The translations under genes were made by a program, and so were the position numbers. The notes under the pieces are model-generated. The model made no database searches. It was not told the DNA's origin and saw only the letters and a list, made by a program, of their open reading frames with translations. Source: Alphaproteobacteria bacterium (lineage in GTDB: Bacteria; Pseudomonadota; Alphaproteobacteria; Micavibrionales; Micavibrionaceae). Taken from it: DNA of 64,000 nt. Below, in pieces: positions 5,999 through 39,921 of the stretch. How positions within the stretch are numbered: the stretch's first letter is position 1; every line of letters starts with the position of its first letter. Location of the stretch: the NCBI GenBank assembly GCA_024279035.1, contig JAJRSA010000013.1, forward strand, positions 91,889 to 155,888, written 5' to 3'.

Positions 5999-6026
5999 AG
6001 GGCAGTTTCTGTGCCCTGTTTTCGTT
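5999..6026 (+). terminator. Hairpin plus T-tract after flbD (intrinsic terminator or flhA leader hairpin)
   Basis: A 6-bp stem AGGGCA/TGCCCT with a 7-nt loop, followed by GTTTTCGTT, 42 nt after the flbD stop. Confidence 0.4.
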
Positions 6027-6051
6027 GATCTAAATCAAACTCAAGAGAGAC

Positions 6052-8151
6052 ATGGTAGATAGTTTTTCATCACATCTTATGGGACAGGCCAAAGGGACGG
6101 TACGAGGTATCTTTCGTGGAGATGTTATCTTTGCGACTGGGATTATTGCCATCCTCATGTTTATGCTTGTCCCTATTCCAACATGGATACTGGATATGGG
6201 GTTGTCTTTATCTGTGACGTTCTCTGTTATGATTTTGATGACTGTGTTGTTTCTTCAAAAGCCTCTTGAATTCTCAACTTTTCCAACGGTGCTTTTGATT
6301 GCAACATCTTTGCGTCTTGGATTAAATGTTGCGTCGACACGACTCATTTTAAGTGAAGGGCATACAGGGAATACTGCTGCAGGGCAGGTGATTGAAGCGT
6401 TTGGAAGCTTTATCATTCAAGATAGCTATATCGTGGGGGGCATTGTCTTTGCCATTCTTGTGATTGTTAATTGTGTCGTGATTACCAAAGGATCGGGACG
6501 GATCGCCGAGGTGGCGGCGCGCTTTGCTTTGGATGCGATGCCTGGTAAGCAAATGGCGATTGATAGTGATCTCTCGGCAGGGCTAATGACAGAAGAAGAA
6601 GCCAAAGCCAAACGGGCAGAATTATCTCAGGAAAGTACGTTTTTTGGCGCCATGGATGGGTCGGCAAAGTTTGTCCGAGGGGATGCGATCGCAGGGCTTC
6701 TCATTACATTTATTAATATTATTGGGGGTATTATTATTGGAACAACCTCCAAAGATTTAAGTCTTGCGGAGGCGGCGTCCACTTACACAATTTTAACGAT
6801 TGGAGATGGACTAGTCTCTCAAATTCCTGCTCTGGTCGTCTCTATTTCCGCAGGTTTATTGATCTCAAAGGCAGGGGTTGAAGGCTCCGCAGATCAGGCT
6901 CTCTATAAACAGTTTGGACGTTATCCAAAAGCCTTGGCAATGAGTTCTGTTTTAATGATTGGTGTGGGGCTTGTTCCAGGGATTCCTGCGGTTCCTTTTT
7001 TATTCCTTGGGATTGTGGCAGGAGGGCTTTCCTATCTGGCTTTCCAAAAGAAAGAAGGGGACGCGCAAAAAATTGTCACAGACGCAGAAGAGAAAAAGGC
7101 ACTGGCCAGACCTGCAGAAGAGCCGATTTCTAAGTCTCTGGCGATGGATACGATCCGTTTGGAGCTAGGCTATGGTCTGCTCCCGCTTGTGCAGGGGGAA
7201 GGCGAGAATAAGCTGACGGTGCAGATTAAAGGTTTGAGACGGCAATTGGCCGAGGATATGGGCTATATCCTGCCCGCTGTGCGCATTCAAGACAATCTCC
7301 AACTCCAAGCCAATCAATATATGGTGCGTGTGAAAGAAATTGAAGCAGGGCGTGGGGATGTGCGTCCCAACATGTTGTTATGTATGGATCCTACGGGTGA
7401 ACCGATTAGTCTCCCCGGAGAAAACACCACAGAGCCCACCTTTGGCTTGCCTGCCATGTGGTTGGATAAACGTTATAAAGAAGAGGCCAACTTCAAAGGC
7501 TATACTGTTGTGGATGCGCCAACTGTGATTACGACGCATTTAACGGAGCTGATTAAAGAACATATGGCAGATTTACTCTCTTATACGGAAACTCAACGCT
7601 TATTGGACGAGCTTGCCCCAGATTATCAAAAGCTTGTTGCGGATGTCATCCCCACACAATTGACGGTTACAGGTCTACAGCGTGTGTTGCAATCTCTGGT
7701 GGGGGAGCGGGTCTCCATCCGTGATCTCCCCACTATTTTAGAAGGCGTGTCCGAGGCCTCAACCTATACCAAAAGTATTTCCTTGATGACCGAGCATGTG
7801 CGCGCACGTTTGGCGCGTCAAATCTGTGATCAAAACGCCAACATGCAAAATATGCTCCCTCTTGTGACGCTCTCACCCAATTGGGAACAAGCCTTTGTGG
7901 AGTCTCTCGTAGGTGATGGGGAAGAGCGTCAATTGGCCATGCCTCCAAGCCAACTCCAAGATTTCATCAGTGCTGTGCGCACAGGTTACGAAAAACTTAC
8001 CAAAACAGGCGAAAGCCCTGTTCTCCTCACCTCTCCCGGCATCCGTCCCTATGTGCGCTCCGTCATAGAACGCTTCCGCCCTCAAACCATCATCATGTCC
8101 CAAAACGAAATTCATGCGAAAGCGAAGATTAAAACCTTGGGGCAGATTTAG
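6052..8151 (+). CDS. flhA: Flagellar type III export apparatus protein FlhA
   Basis: 699 aa. Multi-TM N-domain with FHIPEP-type motifs (ARFALDAMPGKQMAIDSDL, GAMDGSAKFVRGDAIAG) and a large cytoplasmic C-domain. Confidence 0.95.
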   Translation: MVDSFSSHLMGQAKGTVRGIFRGDVIFATGIIAILMFMLVPIPTWILDMGLSLSVTFSVMILMTVLFLQKPLEFSTFPTVLLIATSLRLGLNVASTRLILSEGHTGNTAAGQVIEAFGSFIIQDSYIVGGIVFAILVIVNCVVITKGSGRIAEVAARFALDAMPGKQMAIDSDLSAGLMTEEEAKAKRAELSQESTFFGAMDGSAKFVRGDAIAGLLITFINIIGGIIIGTTSKDLSLAEAASTYTILTIGDGLVSQIPALVVSISAGLLISKAGVEGSADQALYKQFGRYPKALAMSSVLMIGVGLVPGIPAVPFLFLGIVAGGLSYLAFQKKEGDAQKIVTDAEEKKALARPAEEPISKSLAMDTIRLELGYGLLPLVQGEGENKLTVQIKGLRRQLAEDMGYILPAVRIQDNLQLQANQYMVRVKEIEAGRGDVRPNMLLCMDPTGEPISLPGENTTEPTFGLPAMWLDKRYKEEANFKGYTVVDAPTVITTHLTELIKEHMADLLSYTETQRLLDELAPDYQKLVADVIPTQLTVTGLQRVLQSLVGERVSIRDLPTILEGVSEASTYTKSISLMTEHVRARLARQICDQNANMQNMLPLVTLSPNWEQAFVESLVGDGEERQLAMPPSQLQDFISAVRTGYEKLTKTGESPVLLTSPGIRPYVRSVIERFRPQTIIMSQNEIHAKAKIKTLGQI

Positions 8152-8187
8152 AGAATATGTTATACTAAGGCCTAAGAGAGGTTCATA

Positions 8188-8604
8188 ATGGCACATGATT
8201 ATGCAGAGAAAAAGATGAGAGAGGCGCTCGTCCAATCGGGAGGGAATGCGACGCAGGCGCAGAGGATTTTGATTGAGTGGGCGTTGGACGATCAGATTTT
8301 ACTCATTGCTCTGACCCAACATCATCTCAAAGGGATTGTGGCGCATGCGATTGAACGGACGATTTCCAAAGATAAGCCTGAGCGCGAGAAAATTTCTAAA
8401 CCCCAGACAAAACCTGAGCCCATTGATATGCCTCCTGAAAGCTTTGGGCGGGATCTTTTGAAGGCTCTGTCAGGGCGCAACAGCATCCGTTTTGGTTTGG
8501 AGGGGGCGAGTGGTCGTCCTATTGTCACACGACGTAAACAAGCCTCTCAGCAACATATTGATGCGTTGAAAAGTATGTCCTCTATTCCCCCTAAAGAGTC
8601 CTAA
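8188..8604 (+). CDS. Hypothetical protein (138 aa) downstream of flhA
   Basis: Clean ORF with a GAGAGG RBS-like sequence upstream. No motif recognised. Confidence 0.45.
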   Translation: MAHDYAEKKMREALVQSGGNATQAQRILIEWALDDQILLIALTQHHLKGIVAHAIERTISKDKPEREKISKPQTKPEPIDMPPESFGRDLLKALSGRNSIRFGLEGASGRPIVTRRKQASQQHIDALKSMSSIPPKES

Positions 8605-8644
8605 AAAAGATCGTTTGCTTTTATGAGGTTCCATACCACACACA

Positions 8645-8773
8645 GTCATCCCCGAGGACATGCACAGCATGTCTTAAACGTCGGGGATCCATATGTCAGT
8701 GACAACGCCACTGCCTTTATAGAGAAAGAGTGGATTCCTGCCTTCGCAGGAATGACGGAGGGTGGCAGGATGA
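8645..8773 (+). repeat. Composite palindromic repeat, family B (three hairpins plus a partial extra arm), intergenic copy
   Basis: GTCATCCCCGAGGACATGCACAGCATGTCTTAAACGTCGGGGATC, a CAGTG...CACTG hairpin, GGATTCCTGCCTTCGCAGGAATGAC, then GGCAGGATGAC. Collinear with the reverse complement of 13982-14090. Confidence 0.75.
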
Positions 8774-8779
8774 CGGAGG

Positions 8780-12145
<3,366 letters not shown>

Positions 12146-12909
12146 CAGATGTATTTTAAAGGTGAGTGTAACGTGTATTCCTATGCCCATTCTGCCATAA
12201 TTTTTGTTTATGTACAGGTAAAAGAGTGTGTGAGATGTTGGATATCTATAATTTTAAGAGTAATGGTGAGGGAGAACACCCTCATGGGCCAAGGGGAAAG
12301 CACCTTTGCGATGTATAGAGTGTCTTTAATCTATCGCAAAGGCCTAATTTATATTTTATGTATAGTTATTGTTGAGCTCAGGAGATTTTTGAGATAGCCT
12401 TAGTCTCTTTTGACTGGAGGGCCAGCATTGATTTCCTACAGAATACGTGCTTGACTCTATAGTAACTTTAACCTGATAAGGAAAACTTATATCCAACGCA
12501 TCACATTGAATGATTTTAGCCTGTACCCATTCCATCATCCCAAAACTCAACAGCTGTTCCAACGGAAGGAGGCCAAGTGTGTCGTGCACTTGCGGTTTGT
12601 GTATGCGATGTGCCTGTATCTGTGATTTCAATAGAACTTGTAAAGGACTGCGTTGCCGTTGCCTGCTCTGCACGCAACATTTTTAATGCCTCTTCTGCCA
12701 CAACTCTGCCACAACATTGAACTCTAATTTTTTTTGTTTAATACCCTCTAAAGATGGTCTTCTAAACCCTAATTTACTCATTGATACGCTCCTGTTTTTT
12801 TTGAATAAGTAAAATCTGTAGTATCTATATGTCCATACATCAAGAGGAAAATAAAATGTAAAGTTTTTTCCTCTCCACATTCCTCCCTAACCCTGCTACA
12901 ACGCTTTTC

Positions 12910-15900
12910 ATGAGTGAGGCAAGCGATGTAATATATGGGGCGATTGAGGGGCAGGATGCGCGGATTATGGCGGATTTGGCGCGTCAGATTATGGCGGATG
13001 ATCGTGTTTTAATTCATATTGCGCTGGATGATCGGCGCATTCAAACACTCAGAAGTGCGCTGAAATTCTTTGCGCCTGATGTTCAGATCTCTGTCTTTCC
13101 CGCGTGGGATTGTTTGCCCTATGATCGGGTATCACCAAGCTCTGACCTTGTGGCACATCGTGTGTCTACCTTGTGTAAATTATTGAAGTGGCGTGACGCA
13201 AAAAAACGCGTGCCTCGTATTCTGCTTACAACCACCAATGCCGCGCTTCAAAAAGTAACCCCTGTGACGGCGTTTCAAGAGGCGGGCTTTATGGGACGAA
13301 AGGGAGGTGTTTTTGAGCAAGACAAAGCCCTTAATTTCCTCATCAAAAGCGGATATATCCGCACAGACACGGTGCGAGAAGCAGGAGAATTTGCTATTCG
13401 TGGCGGGATTGTTGATATTTTCCCCGCAGGCAAAGTACGTCCCATTCGTTTGGATCTCTTTGGGGATGAGATCGAAAGCATTAAGGCGTTTGATCCGCTC
13501 ACTCAGAGGAGTATCAAAGAGCTTGGGCAGTTTTCTCTTATTCCTGCTACAGAGTTCTTTTTAGATAAGGCCTCGATAGAAACATTCAGAGGGCAGTATC
13601 GAGATTTATTCGGCATGAAACAAAGTCACGATCCTCTCTATGAAGCGGTCAGCCAAGGGCGACGCTATAACGGAATGGATCACTGGATGCCGTTGTTTTT
13701 TGAGGGCGGAGAGATGGCCACGCTGTTTGACTATGCCGATAATCCGATGGTCACTCAAGATCTCCACGCCCAACAAGCCCACAGTGAACGATGGGAGCAA
13801 ATCACAGATTTATATGCAACGCGCAAAACATTGGAGCAAGCAGGGGCGCATAAGAAAAAATCACACGATATTAGTTTGACAGGCGCGAAGTATCATCCCA
13901 TTACCCCTGAGAGTCTGTATTTGGAATATTTACCGTGTGAGGCTCTTGTTTTGAGCCCTTTTAAAAATCCCACCCAACGGTGTCATACCCGCGAAGGCGG
14001 GTATCCGGACCAGAATAAAGACAGTCGCGAAGCGACTGACAGACCCAGATCCCCGACGATAGACATGCGTGGCATGTCCTCGGGGATGACAGAGGAGAGA
14101 GAGGCGCACAAGGTGAGAAGCTTTGCCGATATACGGGCGGATTCTGAGCAGGATTTATTTCGCTTTATACGAGACTATTGCATTGATTTTCAGGTGCAAA
14201 AGAAAAAGATTCTGATCTCTGCCTATAGCCAAGGGGCACGGGATCGCTTGAAGGGACTCCTCGAAGGGGGAGGGTTTGACACGCTTAGAGAGTGTGCGGG
14301 ACAAGACGATCTTAAAAAACTCACCTCGCCCCAAATCGGCATGACTATTCTGGCCTTGGATGAGGGGTTTGTCGCCCCTGATCTGGCAGTGCTCACGGAA
14401 CAAGACATTCTAGGAGATCGTCTTGTGCGGAGCCGTAAAAAACGTAAAAAAGCCGATAATTTTCTTAAAGAAGTCTCTTCTCTCAACGAAGGAGATCTTG
14501 TGGTGCATATTGATCACGGGGTCGGGCGCTTTATCGGGTTAGAGACCATTAAAGCGGCTGGCACACTTCATGATTGTCTCGTTGTGTCCTATGCAGGCGA
14601 TGACAAGCTCTTCGTGCCTGTTGAAAATATTGATGTGTTGTCTCGTTATGGATCAGAGGAGAGCGCGGGACAGGTGGATAAACTTGGAGGGGTAAGCTGG
14701 CAAGCGCGCAAAACCAAGATCAAAAAAGATTTGATGCGTATTGCAGATCACCTCATGAAAATTGCGGCAGCGCGAGAACTCCGTGAAGGAGAAAAGTTGA
14801 GTGTTGATGAAGAGTCCTATCAAAATTTTATCTCTCATTTCCCGTATCAGGAAACAGAAGATCAGTTGCGTGCGATTGAAGAGTCTCTTGGGGATATGAA
14901 TTCTGGGCGTCCGATGGATCGCTTGATCTGCGGAGATGTCGGGTTTGGAAAAACAGAGATAGCCATTCGTGCTGCCTATGTAGCCGCGATGAGTGGAGTC
15001 CAAGTCGCCGTCATTGCCCCCACAACCTTACTGGTGCGCCAACATGCCCTTAATTTTCAAGAGCGTTTTAAAGGCACAGGGATCCGCGTTGACCAACTCT
15101 CTCGCTTTGTCTCGACGAAAGAGGCGCAATCTACAAAAGAAGGGTTGCGGACGGGGGCGGTTAATATAGTTGTGGGCACACATGCACTTCTCGCGGAAAG
15201 CATTAAGTTTAATAATCTCGGTTTGGTTGTTGTCGATGAAGAGCAACGCTTTGGCGTAAAACAAAAAGAACGTCTCAAGAATTTACGTGCCGATGTGCAT
15301 ATCCTGACGATGACGGCCACCCCCATTCCACGGACATTGCAAATGTCTTTGGCAGGGGTCAAAGAGATGAGCATTATTGCCACGCCTCCTGTGGATCGCC
15401 TTGCTATTCGGACGTTTGTTCTCCCTTTTGACGGGATGGTGATCCGAGAAGCGCTCTTGCGGGAATATCACCGAGGGGGACAGTCTTTTTATGTGTGTCC
15501 ACGCGTAAAAGATATCCGTGAACTTGAAAAGCATCTCAAAGAGCTTGTGCCAGAGCTTCGTATTGTCGCAGCGCATGGACAAATGACGGCGAGGGATCTA
15601 GAAGATCGGATGAATGCCTTTATTGATAAGCAGTATGATGTGTTACTCGCGACCAATATCATTGAAAGCGGAATCGATATTCCCACCGCCAATACCATGA
15701 TTGTCCATCGCGCGGATATGTTTGGCTTGGCACAGCTTTACCAGATCAGAGGACGCATAGGGCGCTCGAAAGTACGGGCTTACGCCTATCTGACCTATAC
15801 CCCTAATAAGAAACTCACCGCTCAAGCGCAAAAGCGTCTGGAAATTTTGGAAACGCTGGATACCCTCGGCGCTGGATTTCAATTGGCCAGTCACGACATG

Positions 15901-16491
15901 GATATTCGAGGCGCTGGAAACTTGGTCGGAGAAGAGCAATCAGGACATATTAAAGAGGTCGGCGTTGAGCTCTATCAGCACCTCCTTGAAGAGGCCGTGG
16001 CCGCTGCGCGTGCAGGTGTGGATATGACAGATCTTCCAGAAGACACGGACTGGACAGTCAATATCAATCTTGGGACATCCATCCTTATCCCAGAACAATA
16101 CGTATCGGATTTATCTGTTCGTATGAGTCTCTATCGTCGTCTTCCTGATCTTGAGAGCGCACGAGAGATTGAAATTTTCGCCGCCGAAATGATTGACCGT
16201 TTTGGGGATCTTCCCGAAGAAGTCCAAAACCTCCTCGATATCACAAAAATCAAACAACTCTGCAAAAAAGCTGGCATAGACCGCATCGACGCAGGCCCTA
16301 AAGGCGCGCTCATCGGATTTCGAAACGACACCCCTCCCAACCCTGAGACACTCATCCAATGGATCACCGCCCAAAAAGGCACCTCCAAACTCCGCCCCGA
16401 TCAAAGGATTTCAATCGTAAGAGGCTGGGAACAGCCGAAACAAAGGGTAAAAGGCGTATGGACTATTGTGAAACAGATGAGTGGGGTGTAA
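12910..16491 (+). CDS. mfd: Transcription-repair coupling factor Mfd
   Basis: 1193 aa. CarD/RID motif DLVVHIDHGVGRF and SF2 motifs GDVGFGKTE, VVDEEQRFG, TATPIPRT, QLYQIRGRIGRS. C-terminal TRCF domain. Confidence 0.96.
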   Translation: MSEASDVIYGAIEGQDARIMADLARQIMADDRVLIHIALDDRRIQTLRSALKFFAPDVQISVFPAWDCLPYDRVSPSSDLVAHRVSTLCKLLKWRDAKKRVPRILLTTTNAALQKVTPVTAFQEAGFMGRKGGVFEQDKALNFLIKSGYIRTDTVREAGEFAIRGGIVDIFPAGKVRPIRLDLFGDEIESIKAFDPLTQRSIKELGQFSLIPATEFFLDKASIETFRGQYRDLFGMKQSHDPLYEAVSQGRRYNGMDHWMPLFFEGGEMATLFDYADNPMVTQDLHAQQAHSERWEQITDLYATRKTLEQAGAHKKKSHDISLTGAKYHPITPESLYLEYLPCEALVLSPFKNPTQRCHTREGGYPDQNKDSREATDRPRSPTIDMRGMSSGMTEEREAHKVRSFADIRADSEQDLFRFIRDYCIDFQVQKKKILISAYSQGARDRLKGLLEGGGFDTLRECAGQDDLKKLTSPQIGMTILALDEGFVAPDLAVLTEQDILGDRLVRSRKKRKKADNFLKEVSSLNEGDLVVHIDHGVGRFIGLETIKAAGTLHDCLVVSYAGDDKLFVPVENIDVLSRYGSEESAGQVDKLGGVSWQARKTKIKKDLMRIADHLMKIAAARELREGEKLSVDEESYQNFISHFPYQETEDQLRAIEESLGDMNSGRPMDRLICGDVGFGKTEIAIRAAYVAAMSGVQVAVIAPTTLLVRQHALNFQERFKGTGIRVDQLSRFVSTKEAQSTKEGLRTGAVNIVVGTHALLAESIKFNNLGLVVVDEEQRFGVKQKERLKNLRADVHILTMTATPIPRTLQMSLAGVKEMSIIATPPVDRLAIRTFVLPFDGMVIREALLREYHRGGQSFYVCPRVKDIRELEKHLKELVPELRIVAAHGQMTARDLEDRMNAFIDKQYDVLLATNIIESGIDIPTANTMIVHRADMFGLAQLYQIRGRIGRSKVRAYAYLTYTPNKKLTAQAQKRLEILETLDTLGAGFQLASHDMDIRGAGNLVGEEQSGHIKEVGVELYQHLLEEAVAAARAGVDMTDLPEDTDWTVNINLGTSILIPEQYVSDLSVRMSLYRRLPDLESAREIEIFAAEMIDRFGDLPEEVQNLLDITKIKQLCKKAGIDRIDAGPKGALIGFRNDTPPNPETLIQWITAQKGTSKLRPDQRISIVRGWEQPKQRVKGVWTIVKQMSGV
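13982..14090 (-). repeat. Family B composite palindromic repeat inserted in frame inside mfd
   Basis: Three consecutive hairpins (ATACCCGC/GCGGGTAT, CAGTCGC/GCGACTG, ATCCCCGA...TCGGGGAT with an inner CATGC/GCATG). The reverse complement is collinear with 8645-8756. Translated as QRCHTREGGYPDQNKDSREATDRPRSPTIDMRGMSSGMT. Confidence 0.75.
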
Positions 16492-30484: not shown

Positions 30485-31345
30485 ATGTCAAAAAATTTAA
30501 ATAAATTCCGAGAGACTTCAAAGGAAAATCACAGCTGGTTTAATATAAGATATCGCCAGATAGATACTTTGTTCAGATGGGATTCTCTGAAATCAATTGG
30601 AGATCTTCCTTTTATTAGAGGATCTGCCATACTTGTGGTGATTTTACCTATATTAGATAAAATTCTCTCTCCAATTATTGAAGCTGACTTTCATTTATTT
30701 TTAGATATAGCGACCTTCAATTTGATTGCAATTCCAGGGGATGCGACTACGTTGATAGCTACACTTAATAGCGGAGGAAAGTTTTTTCTACCAATTGAAT
30801 TAGGTATTCCTTTTTCTCTCGTTTTAATATACATCGCATCAATCATCCTTATCGTCTCAAACATTATATACCAATTGCAAAAGCCCTCCCTCATTGGTGA
30901 TTATAAAGATGCAAATAGAATGACGATTTTACAAAATTTTAGAAAACTACAGATGGGGTTGAATTCAGAAGAGGAGCGGGTGGACCATTGGGGAAAGTTT
31001 TTTGCACGATTTCCAAATAATATTCTCTCCCTTGAAGAAGAATGGGATGAATTAGAAGACAAGAAGAATATTTTATCCTTAGCTCAGATTGACACATCCT
31101 CAGCACATTTTGGAAAACATAAGAAAGTGCCAAAAGATTTCAAATTGAATCCAGACACGATCTATTTTTATGCAGAAAGAATGTTAATTGATGAAAACAA
31201 CTGGGAAGAGGCTTTGGGAGATATTAAGTGGTACCTGAATAGAACGAAACGTAAAGCAAGGTGGTTTTGTGGAATAGGGTTTTCAATGACGGCAGGTATT
31301 GCTATCTTTTTGGTTTTACAAGGTTTTGTAGAACTCCTAACTTAA
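30485..31345 (+). CDS. Hypothetical membrane protein (286 aa)
   Basis: AT-rich ORF starting 10 nt after the helicase gene. Hydrophobic segments near aa 45-65, 105-130 and 255-280. No motif recognised. Confidence 0.45.
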   Translation: MSKNLNKFRETSKENHSWFNIRYRQIDTLFRWDSLKSIGDLPFIRGSAILVVILPILDKILSPIIEADFHLFLDIATFNLIAIPGDATTLIATLNSGGKFFLPIELGIPFSLVLIYIASIILIVSNIIYQLQKPSLIGDYKDANRMTILQNFRKLQMGLNSEEERVDHWGKFFARFPNNILSLEEEWDELEDKKNILSLAQIDTSSAHFGKHKKVPKDFKLNPDTIYFYAERMLIDENNWEEALGDIKWYLNRTKRKARWFCGIGFSMTAGIAIFLVLQGFVELLT

Positions 31346-34338: not shown

Positions 34339-34414
34339 TGGTAGCGGAGGGCAGAATTGAACTGCCGACCTTCGGATTATGATTCCGCTGCTCTAACCGC
34401 TGAGCTACACCGCC
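34339..34414 (-). tRNA. tRNA with CAT anticodon (elongator Met or lysidine-modified Ile2)
   Basis: 76 nt, folds as a cloverleaf by hand: GGCGGTG-TA-GCTC-AGCGGTTA-GAGC-A-GCGGA-ATCATAA-TCCGA-AGGTC-GGCAG-TTCAATT-CTGCC-CTCCGCT-A-CCA. CCA is encoded. The acceptor stem has G1-U72 and a U6-U67 mismatch. Confidence 0.78.
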
Positions 34415-34481
34415 ATAAGATACAGGGTTATCGCTTTTTACTCTCTTTTTGTCAAGAGATTTTGAGAGGAGTGTTCAAAAT

Positions 34482-34660
34482 TCAAAAATGATAGAGAGGG
34501 CTGTTTTTATGATGAGGGAGAAGAGGCGCAACAATAACTGTTCGTGTGCCTTTATTGAGCAAATTAGATTGGATAATCACACAGGGTCTTTTCTTTTGTG
34601 TTTCTGCGTCTCGTGTGGGGGGTAGGTCAACCCAAAATATATTGAGTTGTTTACACACAT
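34482..34660 (-). pseudogene. MazF/PemK-family toxin remnant (frameshifted and C-terminally truncated)
   Basis: The ATG overlaps the antitoxin stop (TAATG). Frame 1 reads MCVNNSIYFGLTYPPHETQKHKRKDPV*. After a -1 shift in an A-run, the reading is KRPCVIIQSNLLNKGTRTVIVAPLLPHHKNSPLYHF*, matching the conserved KRP.V.....L......V..AP.T core of MazF/PemK. The total is far shorter than the ~110 aa of the family. Confidence 0.55.
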
Positions 34661-34887
34661 TAATCGGTTATGCTCTCAGAGAGCGTGGTCTTCCACTCTG
34701 AGAGATCTTCTTGATAGGCTGAGTCTTGGGCTTCTTCTTCATTGGCCTGTAATATGGCCTCTTCGAGTGTTCTTTGTCTCTCTCTCGTTAGAAGATCATT
34801 GATATAGGCACTCTTATTTGTGCCACCAACCTCTTGCAAAAAAGCAAAAGTCTCTGGATTGAGTGAAAAAGGTGTGCGCTCCATCAT
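34660..34887 (-). CDS. Putative ribbon-helix-helix-type antitoxin (75 aa)
   Basis: Small ORF directly upstream of, and stop/start-coupled to, the MazF-like remnant. N-terminal TPFSLNPETFAFLQE..KSAYINDLL fits an RHH beta-strand plus helix. Acidic C-terminal tail. Confidence 0.5.
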   Translation of the reverse strand: MMERTPFSLNPETFAFLQEVGGTNKSAYINDLLTRERQRTLEEAILQANEEEAQDSAYQEDLSEWKTTLSESITD

Positions 34888-35145
34888 TATGTATTACTCC
34901 TCTTTCATACGATTTTCTCATACTTGTGTATATGATATAAAGATCTTATTTTCTCTCATTTATACAGATTATCCCCTTGTTAGAGTGTGTATTTTCACGG
35001 TTCTTCATTTCGTTCCCCATTTTTCAACAAAAAAACATGACAGTGGCATAAGGCGTGTGGGTTTATGGGGAAGATGTAGAACGGTGTGTGGGGTGTTTTG
35101 AGTGGTCATAGAGTCAATATAGGATGAAAATCCTAAAATGTCAAG

Positions 35146-35175
35146 GAAAAACCCTCCCGCTTTTGGGGGGAGGGG
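35146..35175 (-). terminator. Intrinsic terminator after the last gene of the orphan three-gene cluster
   Basis: On the minus strand, a 7-bp stem CCCTCCC/GGGAGGG with a 9-nt loop is followed by TTTTT, about 20 nt after the stop at 35194. Confidence 0.6.
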
Positions 35176-35193
35176 ACAGCTATCATTGATTTT

Positions 35194-36162
35194 CTAGTTT
35201 AGTGCAAGTCTGAGAGCATCATTAAGTTTAGTTTTTTGGTCGAGTGGTAGAGCTGTCCATTCAGCTTCTTGTTGAAGAGAATCAATTTCTGAAGCTTCTA
35301 AAGCATTTACGTCACCACCGAGTCCAGCAGCCTCAGCCATTAGGTTCTTTAGGGCAGGAGAAATTTTTATTGCGGAATTATTTAATATATCTGTTAGTTC
35401 CTCATGTGTCACTGTTCCTGAGGTTCCTTGTGAATCCGTATTGCCTAGAGTATTGTTTGCAAAACTGCCTTTTCCTCCAGTATTATTTAAAATTGCCCTG
35501 TTTTTTGCATTAGTTATGTTTTGCCCAGTACCAAGAAATCCTTTGTTTAATTTATCTATTATATTTGTGATTTTGCTTTCTGCGTTTATGGCAATTTCTG
35601 GGCTAAAGCCTTTGACTCGACCAGAAACTTGATTTTGAACAGGAGCAATTGTCTCTGAGACCCATTCATTCATATCTTGTGCTCTAGTTACGATTGTTTT
35701 TGCAAGATCAGTCATCCCTAACATGGTTGCTACTGCACCAAAAAATCCAGCAATTCCGCTTGTCCAATCACTCAGTTTTTCGGCAACAGCAGATCGTACT
35801 TTAAAAATTGTTCCGAGTTGTTGTTGTTCTAAGCCACGAAAATTTGAAAGATGTCCCTCTTTTTCTGTCTTGGAAAGTTCTACCTGTGTTGTTAAAGTCT
35901 CATTGACAATAGCCAAAATCTTCGTGGCGCCATCTTCATCAAATTTCTGTATGTAACCTTGACGGCCTTTTAGGGTCTCAATAAAATTGGTATAAAGCTC
36001 TCCCTGACCAACGGCTTGTCCATATCTAAGAGGTTCATCCAAAAAAAACTGACGTTGTATAGGATCATTAGGATCAACATCTTTAATATTAGCTTTAAAT
36101 GTTGCTAATGCTTCTGCCTTTCCTATTGCGCCTGTGTTTTCATCTACCATCTCTATCTCCAA
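35194..36162 (-). CDS. Hypothetical protein (322 aa), orphan island gene 3
   Basis: Long ORF in an AT-rich region, same strand as its neighbours. One Gly/Ala-rich hydrophobic segment (WTSGIAGFFGAVATMLGM) and an Asn/Gly/Thr-rich low-complexity stretch. No family recognised. Confidence 0.55.
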   Translation of the reverse strand: MEIEMVDENTGAIGKAEALATFKANIKDVDPNDPIQRQFFLDEPLRYGQAVGQGELYTNFIETLKGRQGYIQKFDEDGATKILAIVNETLTTQVELSKTEKEGHLSNFRGLEQQQLGTIFKVRSAVAEKLSDWTSGIAGFFGAVATMLGMTDLAKTIVTRAQDMNEWVSETIAPVQNQVSGRVKGFSPEIAINAESKITNIIDKLNKGFLGTGQNITNAKNRAILNNTGGKGSFANNTLGNTDSQGTSGTVTHEELTDILNNSAIKISPALKNLMAEAAGLGGDVNALEASEIDSLQQEAEWTALPLDQKTKLNDALRLALN

Positions 36163-36258
36163 GTTTTTTGTTCATTTTTAACTATTACCAGTATTATAAG
36201 TATTTATGTTTTCTTATACAAAGTAAACTTACAAAGCATTGATTTTAAATGATTTTAT

Positions 36259-37365
36259 CTATCCTGCTTCTAAGACTGCTTGTCTAATAACATGCCTTTG
36301 TTTAAATTCTAACCCTTTTACAGCTTCAGTAAATTCTGCGTTATTCGTGATGCTCTGACGTGCTTCTTCCTTATTAAGGCCAGCATTTCCATCTTGTTGG
36401 GCAACATTATTCATGACTGATCTAATGTTTTGAAGGACATTTTGAGGGATAGATATTCCTGCATTTTTTGTAGCAAAACTAACCCTTTTCATGACGTTGT
36501 CTACAGGTTCTCCTTCTATGTCTTTAAGTTTTTGTTGAACGTATGTGTCTGCCCCAGCCTGAGTCTTTTTGATAAAGCTTGTTGCATTATCTGTAACAAT
36601 CTTTTTTCCTTCAGAAGCGAGGGATTTTTCTTTTTGATCAAGAGCTTCCTGTTTCCTTTCGTCAAATCTTTTTAATACTTCCAGAGCGGCAGCATTCCCC
36701 GTGCTACCCAGCATCTCGATATGTTTTCTATAGTCAGCGGTGTCTTGTAATAAGCTTGATGCTATCTGATCAGCCTTATAAAACATGACGGTTGCTCTTG
36801 GATCCTTAAAAGGAGCTTCATTTTTGCCTAGATGTTCAGTAACGGTCTCTGAGACAGCTTCACGTTTGAATGGTGAAATATCATTATAATTTTCTAAAAA
36901 TTCTTCAATGTGTTCATTGAGTAATCTTGTTCCTCCGATTGGGTTGTTATAGCGCCATTTAAGAAGAGTTACACCTAATTGATCATTTCCTCCAGCAAGC
37001 TCCATACCAGCTATATTAGCAATAGCTCTTACTGGATTAGGAATACTTCCAATAACTCCAGCAGGGTAAGAGGCGTAACTTAATGCAGTGTCTAAAATAC
37101 TATTGTCTTCTATCATGTCGTGATCTTTGAGTTTGTCTTGAACACCCATGCTTCCAAGGCTAAGAATGCTCACTCCTGCGTATTTTTTCCAATGATTAGA
37201 TAAATGTCCAGAAATAGCTGAAAACCTTCCAGTTGTTGCCTCAGGGTCAACGAGATTACCTATGTTATTAGGGACATCATTAGGATTGAGTGGGCTATTT
37301 CCTTCACCCGCCAACTTTTTAACTTTCTTTTGAGCCCACTCTTTCATAAATTTTGGAACTGCCAT
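36259..37365 (-). CDS. Hypothetical protein (368 aa), orphan island gene 2
   Basis: Long ORF, AT-rich. Helical and charged C-half; Gly-rich hydrophobic patches (AGVSILSLGSMGV, YPAGVIGSIPNPVRAIANIAGMELAGG). No family recognised. Confidence 0.55.
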   Translation of the reverse strand: MAVPKFMKEWAQKKVKKLAGEGNSPLNPNDVPNNIGNLVDPEATTGRFSAISGHLSNHWKKYAGVSILSLGSMGVQDKLKDHDMIEDNSILDTALSYASYPAGVIGSIPNPVRAIANIAGMELAGGNDQLGVTLLKWRYNNPIGGTRLLNEHIEEFLENYNDISPFKREAVSETVTEHLGKNEAPFKDPRATVMFYKADQIASSLLQDTADYRKHIEMLGSTGNAAALEVLKRFDERKQEALDQKEKSLASEGKKIVTDNATSFIKKTQAGADTYVQQKLKDIEGEPVDNVMKRVSFATKNAGISIPQNVLQNIRSVMNNVAQQDGNAGLNKEEARQSITNNAEFTEAVKGLEFKQRHVIRQAVLEAG

Positions 37366-37452
37366 GATACTCTTCCTTTCTTTTTCTCTTTATATTAACA
37401 TAAGTATACATAAAATATCAAGGATATATGGGTATAATACTGTTTTTGTTTT

Positions 37453-37998
37453 CTAAAACTCCATTTGATAGAGGTTTTGTTTGGAGGGTTTCTGTGCCTG
37501 TTCTTCCATAATCTGATCAGGAAAGAGTATAATCCCTCCGATTTCACTTGCAAACGCTGTTCCTTCTGCACCAACAATCACACCTGCCGATTTTGCTAAT
37601 GCTTTGACAGACATCAATTTAGCCACGGCACCCGCAGGGGCGATGTAAGATGTTATTGTTCCTGCAATATGTAAGCCTTCGTCAAAAGTGTCAATATGTT
37701 TAGAGGTGCATATATGTTGATCAAGTCTTTCTGATATAGTGCCATTTATATGGTCAAACCCTCCCCATGGCTCATTTTTCATTTGACCTGCCCCCCATAG
37801 CATTGGCACATTATTAATCGCATCAACAAGATAGCCAATGCTTGATGCTATTTCTACGCCACCGTCAATAATGCCCTTTGAAAAAACATTGGCACGATGT
37901 CGAAAGCCCGTCCCATCATTACATTCCTGTGCTGTGGTCGTGATCTGGTCAGGATAGGCACTTTGACCTGTAAAATTATCTGATATTGTGTCTACCAT
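37453..37998 (-). CDS. Hypothetical protein (181 aa), orphan island gene 1
   Basis: ORF with a C-terminal Gly/Ala-zipper-like hydrophobic region (GLHIAGTITSYIAPAGAVAKLMSVKALAKSAGVIVGAEGTAFASEIGGIILF). No family recognised. Confidence 0.5.
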   Translation of the reverse strand: MVDTISDNFTGQSAYPDQITTTAQECNDGTGFRHRANVFSKGIIDGGVEIASSIGYLVDAINNVPMLWGAGQMKNEPWGGFDHINGTISERLDQHICTSKHIDTFDEGLHIAGTITSYIAPAGAVAKLMSVKALAKSAGVIVGAEGTAFASEIGGIILFPDQIMEEQAQKPSKQNLYQMEF

Positions 37999-38124
37999 AC
38001 CCCTAAAATAGCAGGAAAAGCTTAATAAATGCTAAAAATTTATAGTTTTTCTTTGTTTTTTAAGGGGTTGAGGGGGGCTGTATGGCAGTCTGTTATCATT
38101 ATGTTTTTCAAGAAAAACAGTCCA

Positions 38125-38166
38125 GATCCCCGCCTTCGCGGGGATGACATGTGGGGCGGGGATGAC
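38125..38166 (+). repeat. Partial family B repeat arm (GATCCCCGCCTTCGCGGGGATGAC plus GGCGGGGATGAC)
   Basis: Same arm-plus-half-arm layout as 8732-8773 (GGATTCCTGCCTTCGCAGGAATGAC ... GGCAGGATGAC), with compensatory stem changes. Confidence 0.6.
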
Positions 38167-38343
38167 GTGTGGGGTGTGAGAGGAATGGGTGTGGGATGCC
38201 GTAATTTTGTATAAGTAAAGGAACACGACTGTGTTCCCGCCCCGTATGGGGCGAAGCCTGCGTGGCGTTTGAACGTTTATTTGAACGTTTATATGTGTGC
38301 AAAACCCTCACCCAACTCTCTCCCTGAAGGGAGAGTTTTCACT

Positions 38344-39921
38344 CTAATGCCTAAAATGCCTCATCCCTGTAAACACCATCGCTAAGCCCCGCTCATTGGC
38401 GGCGTCGATCACTTCGTCGTCGCGGATGGAGCCGCCGGGTTGGATGATGGCGGTGATGCCGGCGTCGGCGATGGTGATAATGCCGTCGGCGAAGGGGAAG
38501 AAGGCGTCGGAGGCGACGACGGGGGCGCAGGCTTCTAGGCCGGCCTCTTTCATTTTAGAGGCGGCGATTTTGGCGGCATCGATACGGCTCATTTGACCCG
38601 CACCGATTCCAACGGTGGCTTTGTTTTTCGCATAGACAATGGTATTGGATTTGACGTGTTTTCCGACGCGGAAGGCAAAAAGGAGGTCGTTGAGCTCTTG
38701 GGCGGTAGGCTCGCGGTCGGTGACGATTTTGAGGTCATCAAGCGTGACATGACCTATATCGGCGCTTTGAACCAAAAGCCCGCCTGCAATAGATTTGACC
38801 AGTCTGCGGGGGCGTTTAGGGTCGGGCATATCGCCTGTAGTGAGCACGCGGATGTTTTTCTTTTTGGCAAAGAGTTCAAGAGCATGGGCTTCCACAGAGG
38901 GCGCAATCACGACTTCACAGAAGGTTTTGAGGATCTCTTCCGAGGTGGGCACATCCAAAGGACGGTTGAGCGCAATAATGCCTCCAAAGGCGCTTACAGG
39001 GTCACATTTAAGGGCAGAGAGGTACGCAGAGAGTGTGTCTTCGCCAATGGCCACCCCACAGGGGTTGGCGTGCTTGATGATGGCCACGGCGGGGGCGTCG
39101 AATTCGGCAACCAACTCATAGGCGGCATCGGTGTCATTGAGGTTGTTATAGGAGAGCTCTTTGCCTTGGAGTTGGCTAGCGGTGGCGACCCCTGGGCGAT
39201 CACTGCCTGTAAGATAGAGGGCTGCGTCTTGGTGAGGGTTTTCTCCGTAGCGCAGGCTCTGTTTGAGGCTTCCTGAAAAGCTGACACGTTGGGGCGTGGC
39301 TTCGTCAATGTGCTCGGCAAACCAACGGGAGATATTAGAATCATAGGTCGCTGTAAGCGCATAAGCGTGGGCAGCGAGTTTTTTGCGCAAAGGATGTGTG
39401 ATTCCGCCGTCATGAATCTCCATGTCTTTGAGGATAAGGCTGTATTCTTCAGGATTGGTGACGACGGTACAAAAATCAAAGTTTTTCGCCGCCGAGCGGA
39501 TCATGGCAGGGCCTCCAATGTCTATGTTTTCGATGCAGGTCGCAAAGTTAGCCCCGCTTTTGATGGTCTCGACAAAGGGGTAAAGATTGACAACGAGGAG
39601 GTCTATTTCTTCAATATTATGCTCTTTCATCGCCTGAACATGATCGTCCTTATCACGACGCCCGAGGAGACCTCCATGAATTTTAGGGTGGAGAGTCTTT
39701 ACCCGCCCATTCATCATCTCGGGCGAGCCTGTATGGTCGGATACATCTTTGACCGTGAGGCCTGCCTCTGTGAGCGCTTTGGCGGTGCCCCCTGTGGAGA
39801 GGAGTTCTATACCGTATTCGGCAAGTTTTGTGGCAAACGTAACAATATCTGTCTTGTCAGATACAGAAAGAAGCGCCCGTTTGATTTTAATTTCTTTCGG
39901 GTCACGGATAATGTCAGTCAT
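38344..39921 (-). CDS. purH: Bifunctional AICAR formyltransferase / IMP cyclohydrolase
   Basis: 525 aa. MGS-like N-domain ([12 protein letters not shown]...LLSTGGTAK) and a C-terminal AICARFT domain ending MRHFRH. Confidence 0.96.

Follow-up and report, generated by a model that had tools for sequence, protein, structure and literature searches.

An orphan three-gene cluster beside purH in a Micavibrio-like alphaproteobacterium, and the variable purH–lepA slot to which it probably belongs

A cluster of three co-oriented genes, here called A181, B368, and C318, lies directly 3′ of purH in the genome of an alphaproteobacterium (G000; 1.82 Mb, 42.75% G+C) from a family of small-genome (1.5–2.6 Mb), Micavibrio-like bacteria. 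The window analyzed is a stretch of 64,000 nucleotides, bases 91889–155888 of contig 19. Rather than a fresh island, the three genes very probably represent what G000 carries in an ancient and hypervariable slot 3′ of purH. A fuller explanation, in which this old slot also encodes exported products that interact with membranes, is favored with confidence a little better than even. Taken alone, the cluster is unremarkable orphan DNA; the slot, seen across the family, offers a useful lead to secretion cargo. The three genes, the terminator that closes the array, and the anchoring purH gene are the following.

37453–37998, minus strand: A181, an open reading frame (ORF) of 181 amino acids (aa), first slot gene
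36259–37365, minus strand: B368, an ORF of 368 aa, second slot gene
35194–36150, minus strand: C318, third slot gene, 318 aa from the ATG at 36150 (322 aa, as C322, from the TTG at 36162)
35146–35175, minus strand: intrinsic terminator closing the three-gene array, a 7-bp all-G/C stem and then the U-run UUUUUCCUU
38344–39921, minus strand: purH, conserved anchor on the 5′ side of the slot

The slot was surveyed in three genomes (G001, G004, and G007) and in the 10 kb downstream of purH fetched from 40 further genera. Co-oriented, Pfam-negative ORFs lie directly 3′ of purH in most of these 40 genera, usually with lepA as the next gene, and unknown co-oriented ORFs likewise follow purH in G004 and G007. 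The same-genus genome G001, whose purH is 82% identical, carries unknown same-strand ORFs of 376, 391, and 205 aa after purH and then lepA; the pgm–chpT–purH synteny is kept in G001 and in G007. A preliminary description of this DNA, which took the cluster for laterally acquired, had proposed asking whether the block is present or absent in close relatives. The slot of G001 proved to hold three different unknown genes and not an empty site, and a comparison limited to the closest relatives would have missed the family-wide slot. Its recurrent order is a Gly/Ala-rich hairpin protein of 160–250 aa, then a giant protein or several ORFs, then a pair of ~125-aa proteins, and then lepA. The middle portion is occupied either by a giant protein of 1,100–2,500 aa or by several ORFs of 350–700 aa, and 8 of 11 giant proteins are linked by BLAST. 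Pairwise BLASTP comparison of slot proteins from four genomes detected no significant similarity, and no Pfam domain was found in the 14 slot proteins tested. The third-codon-position G+C content (GC3) of the slot is below that of lepA in all 15 genera measured, by 0.23 on average; low GC3 therefore belongs to the locus itself and does not signal recent arrival.

The giant slot proteins (loci L045, L047, L050, L052, L054, L055, L057, L060, L061, and L007) are without a Pfam domain and without a signal peptide, and at least one of them, the giant protein of G004, ends in a two-lobed hydrophobic hairpin. The possibility that B368 and C322 are fragments of such giant proteins was considered and rejected (giant-protein profile, E > 1).

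A181 has relatives at the same position in other genera. In Smith–Waterman comparisons with shuffling, the first slot gene of G041 was the best match for A181 (z = 8.7), and the N-terminal 160 aa of the G041 protein have relatives in 15 of the 201 family genomes searched, A181 among them. A four-seed profile built without either G041 or A181 ranked A181 first of ~3,300 ORFs (E = 0.0019, with the next ORF at 0.25), and a profile of the 29 other members, with A181 left out, matched A181 at E = 9.7e-6 as the sole ORF of G000. Only 30 sequences at E <= 1e-3 were recovered when a nine-sequence alignment was searched against 1.84 billion representative proteins, a set in which the family (P0004–P0032, alignment A3) is confined to this bacterial family; by genome, it occurs in 18 of the 117 examined from this family and in none of 83 from seven sister families. 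These profile matches identify A181 as a short representative of a rare protein family that occurs in this bacterial family alone. A181-type genes directly adjoin purH in G000, G041, G153, and G096, and lie in the slot in G053, G052, G005, G022, G023, and G050 as well, such that they sit beside purH in at least 10 genera. The adjacency is not universal, and copies lie elsewhere in G016, G014, and G008.

The conserved part of the A181-type proteins is an N-terminal domain of ~150 aa, with the motifs [FW]H[RK]xxV..G, IPAIPGY[IL]xDL, LY[ED]GSAG, PE[IL]x[DN]ETD, and TxGAG. Members are typically 230–870 aa long and combine this mostly helical domain with a variable middle part; the long forms continue into a strongly hydrophobic, two-lobed C-terminal hairpin and then a Pro-rich tail. 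The match of A181 to the domain lies mainly in residues 18–64; the second half is weak, and the LYEGSAG motif has been lost. None of the 30 members contains a Pfam domain, and none has a sequence relative in the PDB. An AlphaFold2 model of A181 from the 30-sequence alignment is poor (pLDDT 56, pTM 0.39), with confident helices only at residues 32–62 and 104–119, and its Foldseek matches are meaningless. In three loci of genus g9 (L149, L152, and L153, in G114, G083, and G011), matches to the A181-type domain end an ORF of 542–548 aa, and the frame stays open past a single TAA to ~850–880 aa. This interruption could be a case of read-through, a sequencing artifact, or the boundary of two adjacent genes.

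For the other two genes, the nearest relatives point to genus g4. When C318 was searched against 237 family genomes, the top two matches were the third slot genes of the g4 genomes G214 and G006 (E ~0.02 each), and a reverse phmmer search from the g4 third slot gene to C318 gave E = 0.0074 and rank 1 of ~3,300 ORFs. The two proteins are colinear at 22–23% identity, with a common DPNxP motif and the hydrophobic segment in register; on this similarity, C318 is probably homologous to the third slot gene of g4. B368 shows two colinear, weak BLASTP segments with the second slot gene of g4 (E 0.037 and 0.069), and the profile of that gene places B368 third among the ORFs of G000; by sequence, B368 is still essentially an orphan. 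An assignment of B368 to the A181 family, suggested by an eyeballed IPxP...IAxIA motif, was rejected at a profile score of −0.1. Across 86 orphan-like slot queries from other genera, A181, B368, or C318 was the top-ranked ORF of G000 three times against 0.08 expected, an enrichment that common composition may have raised somewhat.

The comparison of G006 and G214, two species of g4 (loci L059 and L197), also bears on how the slot evolves. Divergence at synonymous sites (dS) and the ratio of nonsynonymous to synonymous divergence (dN/dS) were as follows.

purH: dS 0.35, dN/dS 0.037
Slot gene 3 (C318-like): dS 0.36, dN/dS 0.076
Slot gene 1: dS 2.07, dN/dS 0.07
Slot gene 4: dS 2.55, dN/dS 0.09

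The g4 slot genes are under purifying selection. Parts of the slot contain alleles far older than its flanks, and this mosaic of dS values therefore points to allele exchange by recombination. Such exchange fits the observation that A181 resembles genes of genus g36, whereas the slots of G000 and G001 have no detectable similarity. It is thus likely that genes have moved laterally within the family, and unlikely that they were imported once from outside it.

The layout given in the preliminary description, three co-oriented unknown ORFs about 90 nt apart between purH and tRNA(CAT), holds: the gaps are 87 nt (A181–B368) and 96–108 nt (B368–C318, depending on the start chosen). C318 more likely starts at the ATG at 36150, which a GGAGA ribosome-binding site precedes, than at the TTG, and the model of the public gene callers is also 318 aa long. 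B368 has an AAGGAAG ribosome-binding site 7 nt ahead of its ATG, and the spacing of the site upstream of A181 is atypically short. The terminator, already described as clean, has its G/C stem and U-run, and a 63-nt stretch in this region folds at −16.4 kcal/mol; a simple consensus scan did not pick it up. The cluster had also been called more AT-rich than its flanks. Its GC of 0.381 against 0.4275 for the genome, in the lowest 3.2% of 2.8-kb genome windows, supports this, as does GC3 (0.33 in A181, 0.27 in B368, and 0.23 in C318, against a genome mean of 0.39, sd 0.054). The visual contrast was exaggerated, however, because purH is unusually GC-rich (0.54–0.56). In the codon usage check proposed together with windowed GC, the three genes show a pattern typical of the host: a codon log-odds score trained on the genome's 724 long ORFs places A181, B368, and C318, each in its own frame, at the 49th, 34th, and 72nd percentiles of those ORFs. 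The other five frames score strongly negative, and the three ORFs are therefore genuine genes and not chance openings.

Each of the three proteins contains one Gly/Ala-rich hydrophobic stretch. The earlier account of these stretches as amphipathic and hydrophobic stands as to their presence, but their Kyte–Doolittle 19-residue maxima (1.0–1.5) are below the level of a classical transmembrane helix. In A181 the stretch is C-terminal, with a hydropathy maximum of 1.49, and is followed by an acidic tail. The Asn/Gly/Thr-rich tract reported in the third protein is present. Isoelectric points are 4.7 (A181), 6.4 (B368), and 4.9 (C318), the C-termini are polar and acidic, and no Sec or lipoprotein signal peptide was found in any of the three.

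Database searches with the three proteins returned little. Pfam, NCBIfam, and PHROGs gave nothing of weight, and no catalytic or nucleoside triphosphate-binding motif was found, as the preliminary description had stated. PADLOC defense models gave weak matches only (11.9–15.6 bits, E 0.001–0.04), which lends no support to the defense module once proposed. Searches of 5.8 billion proteins recovered self-matches only, a scan of genome contigs likewise yielded nothing beyond the proteins themselves, and PDB sequence profile searches recovered no relative. Within the genome itself, tBLASTn found no paralogues, and the three proteins are not similar to one another; in three congeners and 236 family genomes, the three genes were not found at ordinary thresholds. 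Among protein language-model look-alikes, phage tape-measure clusters were nearest for A181 (0.94) and C318 (0.91), and pre-toxin PT-TG clusters were included for A181 (0.88) and B368 (0.72), in a range where chance matches are common. Both kinds of look-alike fall below reliable scores, and no profile search bore them out.

It is possible to place these observations in a single mechanism. Slot genes of different genera would have diverged, or been swapped by recombination, until profile-level similarity or none was left, and antagonistic co-evolution may be the driver of this turnover. The products, which are acidic, mostly helical, apparently non-enzymatic, and without a Sec signal, would be exported and would touch the membrane of a prey or host cell. 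The conserved N-terminal domain may serve as a constant “handle” for recognition or docking, with the remainder as the variable business end, and the export route deemed most plausible would be the order-wide Dot/Icm type IVB secretion system. Type IVB-dependent export and membrane interaction of the products are, as read from sequence features, conceivable but doubtful; that the genes encode secreted or target-directed effectors, one of the roles first suggested for them, is a live hypothesis. A more specific proposal, which we regard as speculative and rather unlikely, is that the purH–lepA slot is a diversifying cassette of Dot/Icm effectors, in which the N-terminal domain of the A181 type would act as a recognition handle specific to the lineage, and its partners would be injected and inserted into membranes. 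The variable partners would then be B368, C318, and the giant proteins of 1,100–2,500 aa, exchanged between lineages by recombination. If this were true, the slot would supply the first candidate substrates of the type IVB system of this lineage. An order of small-genome relatives of the predator Micavibrio has a Legionella-type injection machine, and the slot is a concrete place in which to seek its cargo.

The secretion genes of G000 lie on contig 6 (L142, ~6000–16000) and encode IcmE/DotG-like, IcmG/DotF-like, TraQ-like, and IcmJ/DotN proteins together with a 995-aa DotO-like ATPase. IcmJ/DotN, at 110 bits, is above its curated cut-off of 100, and IcmE/DotG and IcmG/DotF are partial matches. 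Of 61 family genomes, 60 contain IcmJ, as do 192 of the 201 searched across the order. For M. aeruginosavorus, neither a type III nor a type IV system was reported in the genome paper of 2011 (PMC3189940). The ~125-aa family (alignment A6) occurs as tandem pairs in many purH–lepA slots and also at L142:16090–16479 (plus strand) and L143:3681–4025 (minus strand). In G000, G053, and G008, one copy immediately follows the dotO-like gene and is ~4 kb downstream of icmJ. Its AlphaFold2 model is confident and beta-rich (pLDDT 81.6, pTM 0.70), and searches of Pfam and the PDB gave no relative (Foldseek best E 0.08, TM <= 0.24). A role for this family as an IcmS/IcmW-like adaptor was considered and is not supported, as no PDB structure matched.

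Comparison with known effectors is instructive in both directions. The Dot/Icm effectors of Legionella and Coxiella are, like the slot genes, lineage-specific, often orphan, AT-richer than the core genome, and without a Sec signal, and many are helical proteins whose hydrophobic hairpins insert into target membranes. The likeness extends to the complete-looking chromosomal Dot/Icm system that G000 encodes. On the other side, no sequence or fold relation to any known effector was found for the slot proteins, and their genes sit at one fixed chromosomal place, whereas Dot/Icm effectors are scattered around the genome. The host, moreover, belongs to an alphaproteobacterial group related to a bacterial predator and not to the Legionellales.

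Several observations weigh against the favored explanation of an ancient slot with exported, membrane-interacting products. The Dot/Icm system is order-wide, and its co-occurrence with the slot therefore has no discriminating power. The ~125-aa family links the slot to the dotO neighborhood, yet it is structurally unlike known secretion adaptors and is absent from the slot of G000. A181 is without the strongly hydrophobic C-terminal hairpin of the long forms of its family and resembles the short forms (228–236 aa). Profiles built without C318 rank it first, yet at an E of only ~0.4, and B368 has no significant relative in 237 family genomes or among 5.8 billion proteins. The slot genes of G001 have no detectable similarity to A181, B368, or C318 in pairwise and profile searches, and because of this dissimilarity, divergence in place is indistinguishable from cassette replacement, which is itself lateral exchange. 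Among public sequencing runs, a single one contained cluster DNA, and no RNA run did.

The distal border of the cluster in G000 comprises the following features.

35116–35144, minus strand: promoter-like site directly after the cluster terminator, near-consensus TTGACA, 17-nt spacer, TATATT; probably the mazE promoter
34660–34887, minus strand: mazE, intact antitoxin gene (NF050104, 67.3 bits against a cut-off of 65)
34482–34658, minus strand: mazF, truncated, an N-terminal fragment covering profile positions 1–50 of 109
34339–34414, minus strand: tRNA-Met(CAT); the cluster is on its 5′ side, with the MazE/MazF remnant in between

From the tRNA to purH, the three ORFs and the MazE/MazF remnant are the only genes present. 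A histidine kinase gene also lies on the distal side, and the lepA gene of G000 is on contig 34, away from the slot. The toxin–antitoxin (TA) remnant and the tRNA therefore mark a rearranged far border of the slot and not the edge of an insert, and mazE belongs to this border and not to the slot. The pairing of an antitoxin with a degraded MazF-like toxin, as first described, is borne out: the antitoxin meets its curated cut-off, and the toxin, with 50 of 109 profile positions, is not intact.

These borders bear on the reading with which the preliminary description began, a recent genomic island of foreign DNA inserted by the tRNA and carrying a toxin with accessory or immunity proteins, or a defense module. 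The cluster does resemble tRNA-linked islands in its atypical composition (low GC3, and GC among the lowest windows of the genome), in its strain-specific content (not found at ordinary thresholds in the three congeners or the 236 family genomes, and without paralogues), and in having a TA remnant and a tRNA at one border. However, ~40 genera have the same slot likewise occupied, with AT-richness in each of the 15 measured; slot relatives of A181, and probably of C318, exist inside the family and not outside it; the codon pattern is host-typical; and neither PADLOC nor PHROGs gave matches of weight. The insertion marks once seen at the borders also fell away, with no integrase, no tRNA-derived direct repeat or other att-like repeat, a cluster that lies 5′ of the tRNA, and a position beside purH that, unlike that of such islands, is family-wide. 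The recent-island reading is thus largely refuted by the family-wide slot and appears improbable. As this case shows, an AT-rich orphan cluster need not be a recent import even when a tRNA and a TA remnant lie beside it; it can be a long-established hypervariable locus.

Among the other explanations, it is unlikely, though worth weighing, that the genes encode the cell's own envelope or membrane-associated structural proteins, such as a surface layer or a polar scaffold, which diversify under pressure from phages or grazers or under relaxed constraint. The proteins are helical and non-enzymatic with amphipathic or hydrophobic segments, the two-lobed hydrophobic hairpins at the ends of the longer A181-type members and of giant slot proteins are characteristic of membrane anchors, and purifying selection with allele exchange is also typical of surface-antigen loci; but there is no Sec or lipoprotein signal, the hydrophobic stretches are below transmembrane level, and the neighbors (purH, chpT, pgm) do not tie the slot to known envelope biogenesis genes. 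A polymorphic toxin-type cassette, with the A181-type N-terminal domain as a trafficking module, the variable parts or downstream genes as toxins, and the genes that follow as immunity genes, is as improbable as the recent island. It would account for the conserved N-terminal domain with highly variable remainders, for the replacement of downstream genes between close relatives, and for the dS mosaic, all features in which the slot recalls the recombining CDI, Rhs, and LXG systems. The PT-TG look-alikes of A181 and B368 point the same way, although their scores are in the chance range and PT-TG (PF14449) was not matched by the Pfam scan. Unlike those systems, the slot has no PAAR, Rhs, or filamentous haemagglutinin parts and no known toxin or immunity domain, either in the 30 family members or in the slot proteins, and A181 has almost nothing beyond the N-terminal domain and no C-terminal domain. 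Finally, the genes may be decaying, no longer functional remnants of a larger slot gene set, which we consider very improbable. Most members are longer than A181, whose match falls largely in the first half of the domain; the slot of G000 is without a giant protein, a ~125-aa pair, and a lepA border, and there is a rearrangement scar next door. Against decay stand full-length open frames with coding scores typical of real genes, plausible ribosome-binding sites for B368 and C318, a common terminator, the existence elsewhere of short-form A181-type members (228–236 aa), and a giant-protein profile that does not recognize B368 or C322 as fragments. Like the cluster proteins, phage tape-measure and minor-tail proteins are helical with embedded Gly/Ala-rich hydrophobic segments, but there is no PHROG or Pfam match, no other phage genes lie nearby, and the common features are few (95–147 of 256).

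Two further features lie on the purH side of the cluster and within it.

37999–38343, no strand: spacer between purH and A181, 345 nt, with G+C-rich hairpins and an 18-nt tandem repeat
37392–37421, minus strand: promoter-like site in the A181–B368 spacer, TTGATA, 18-nt spacer, TAATAT, with TG; a consensus match only

The repeat arms and palindromes reported on this side are accordingly present. The 18-nt tandem repeat, at 38138–38173, adjoins a G+C-rich hairpin (ATCCCCGC, a 4-nt loop, and GCGGGGAT) of which the genome holds three copies only, two of them on contig 2. The spacer belongs to no Rfam family; the Rfam scan gave the tRNA only.

Elsewhere in the window, at 30485–31345 on the plus strand, lies an orphan ORF of 286 aa with hydrophobic segments and with no Pfam or NCBIfam match. 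The stretch in which it lies, at a GC of 0.35, is the most AT-rich of the neighborhood.

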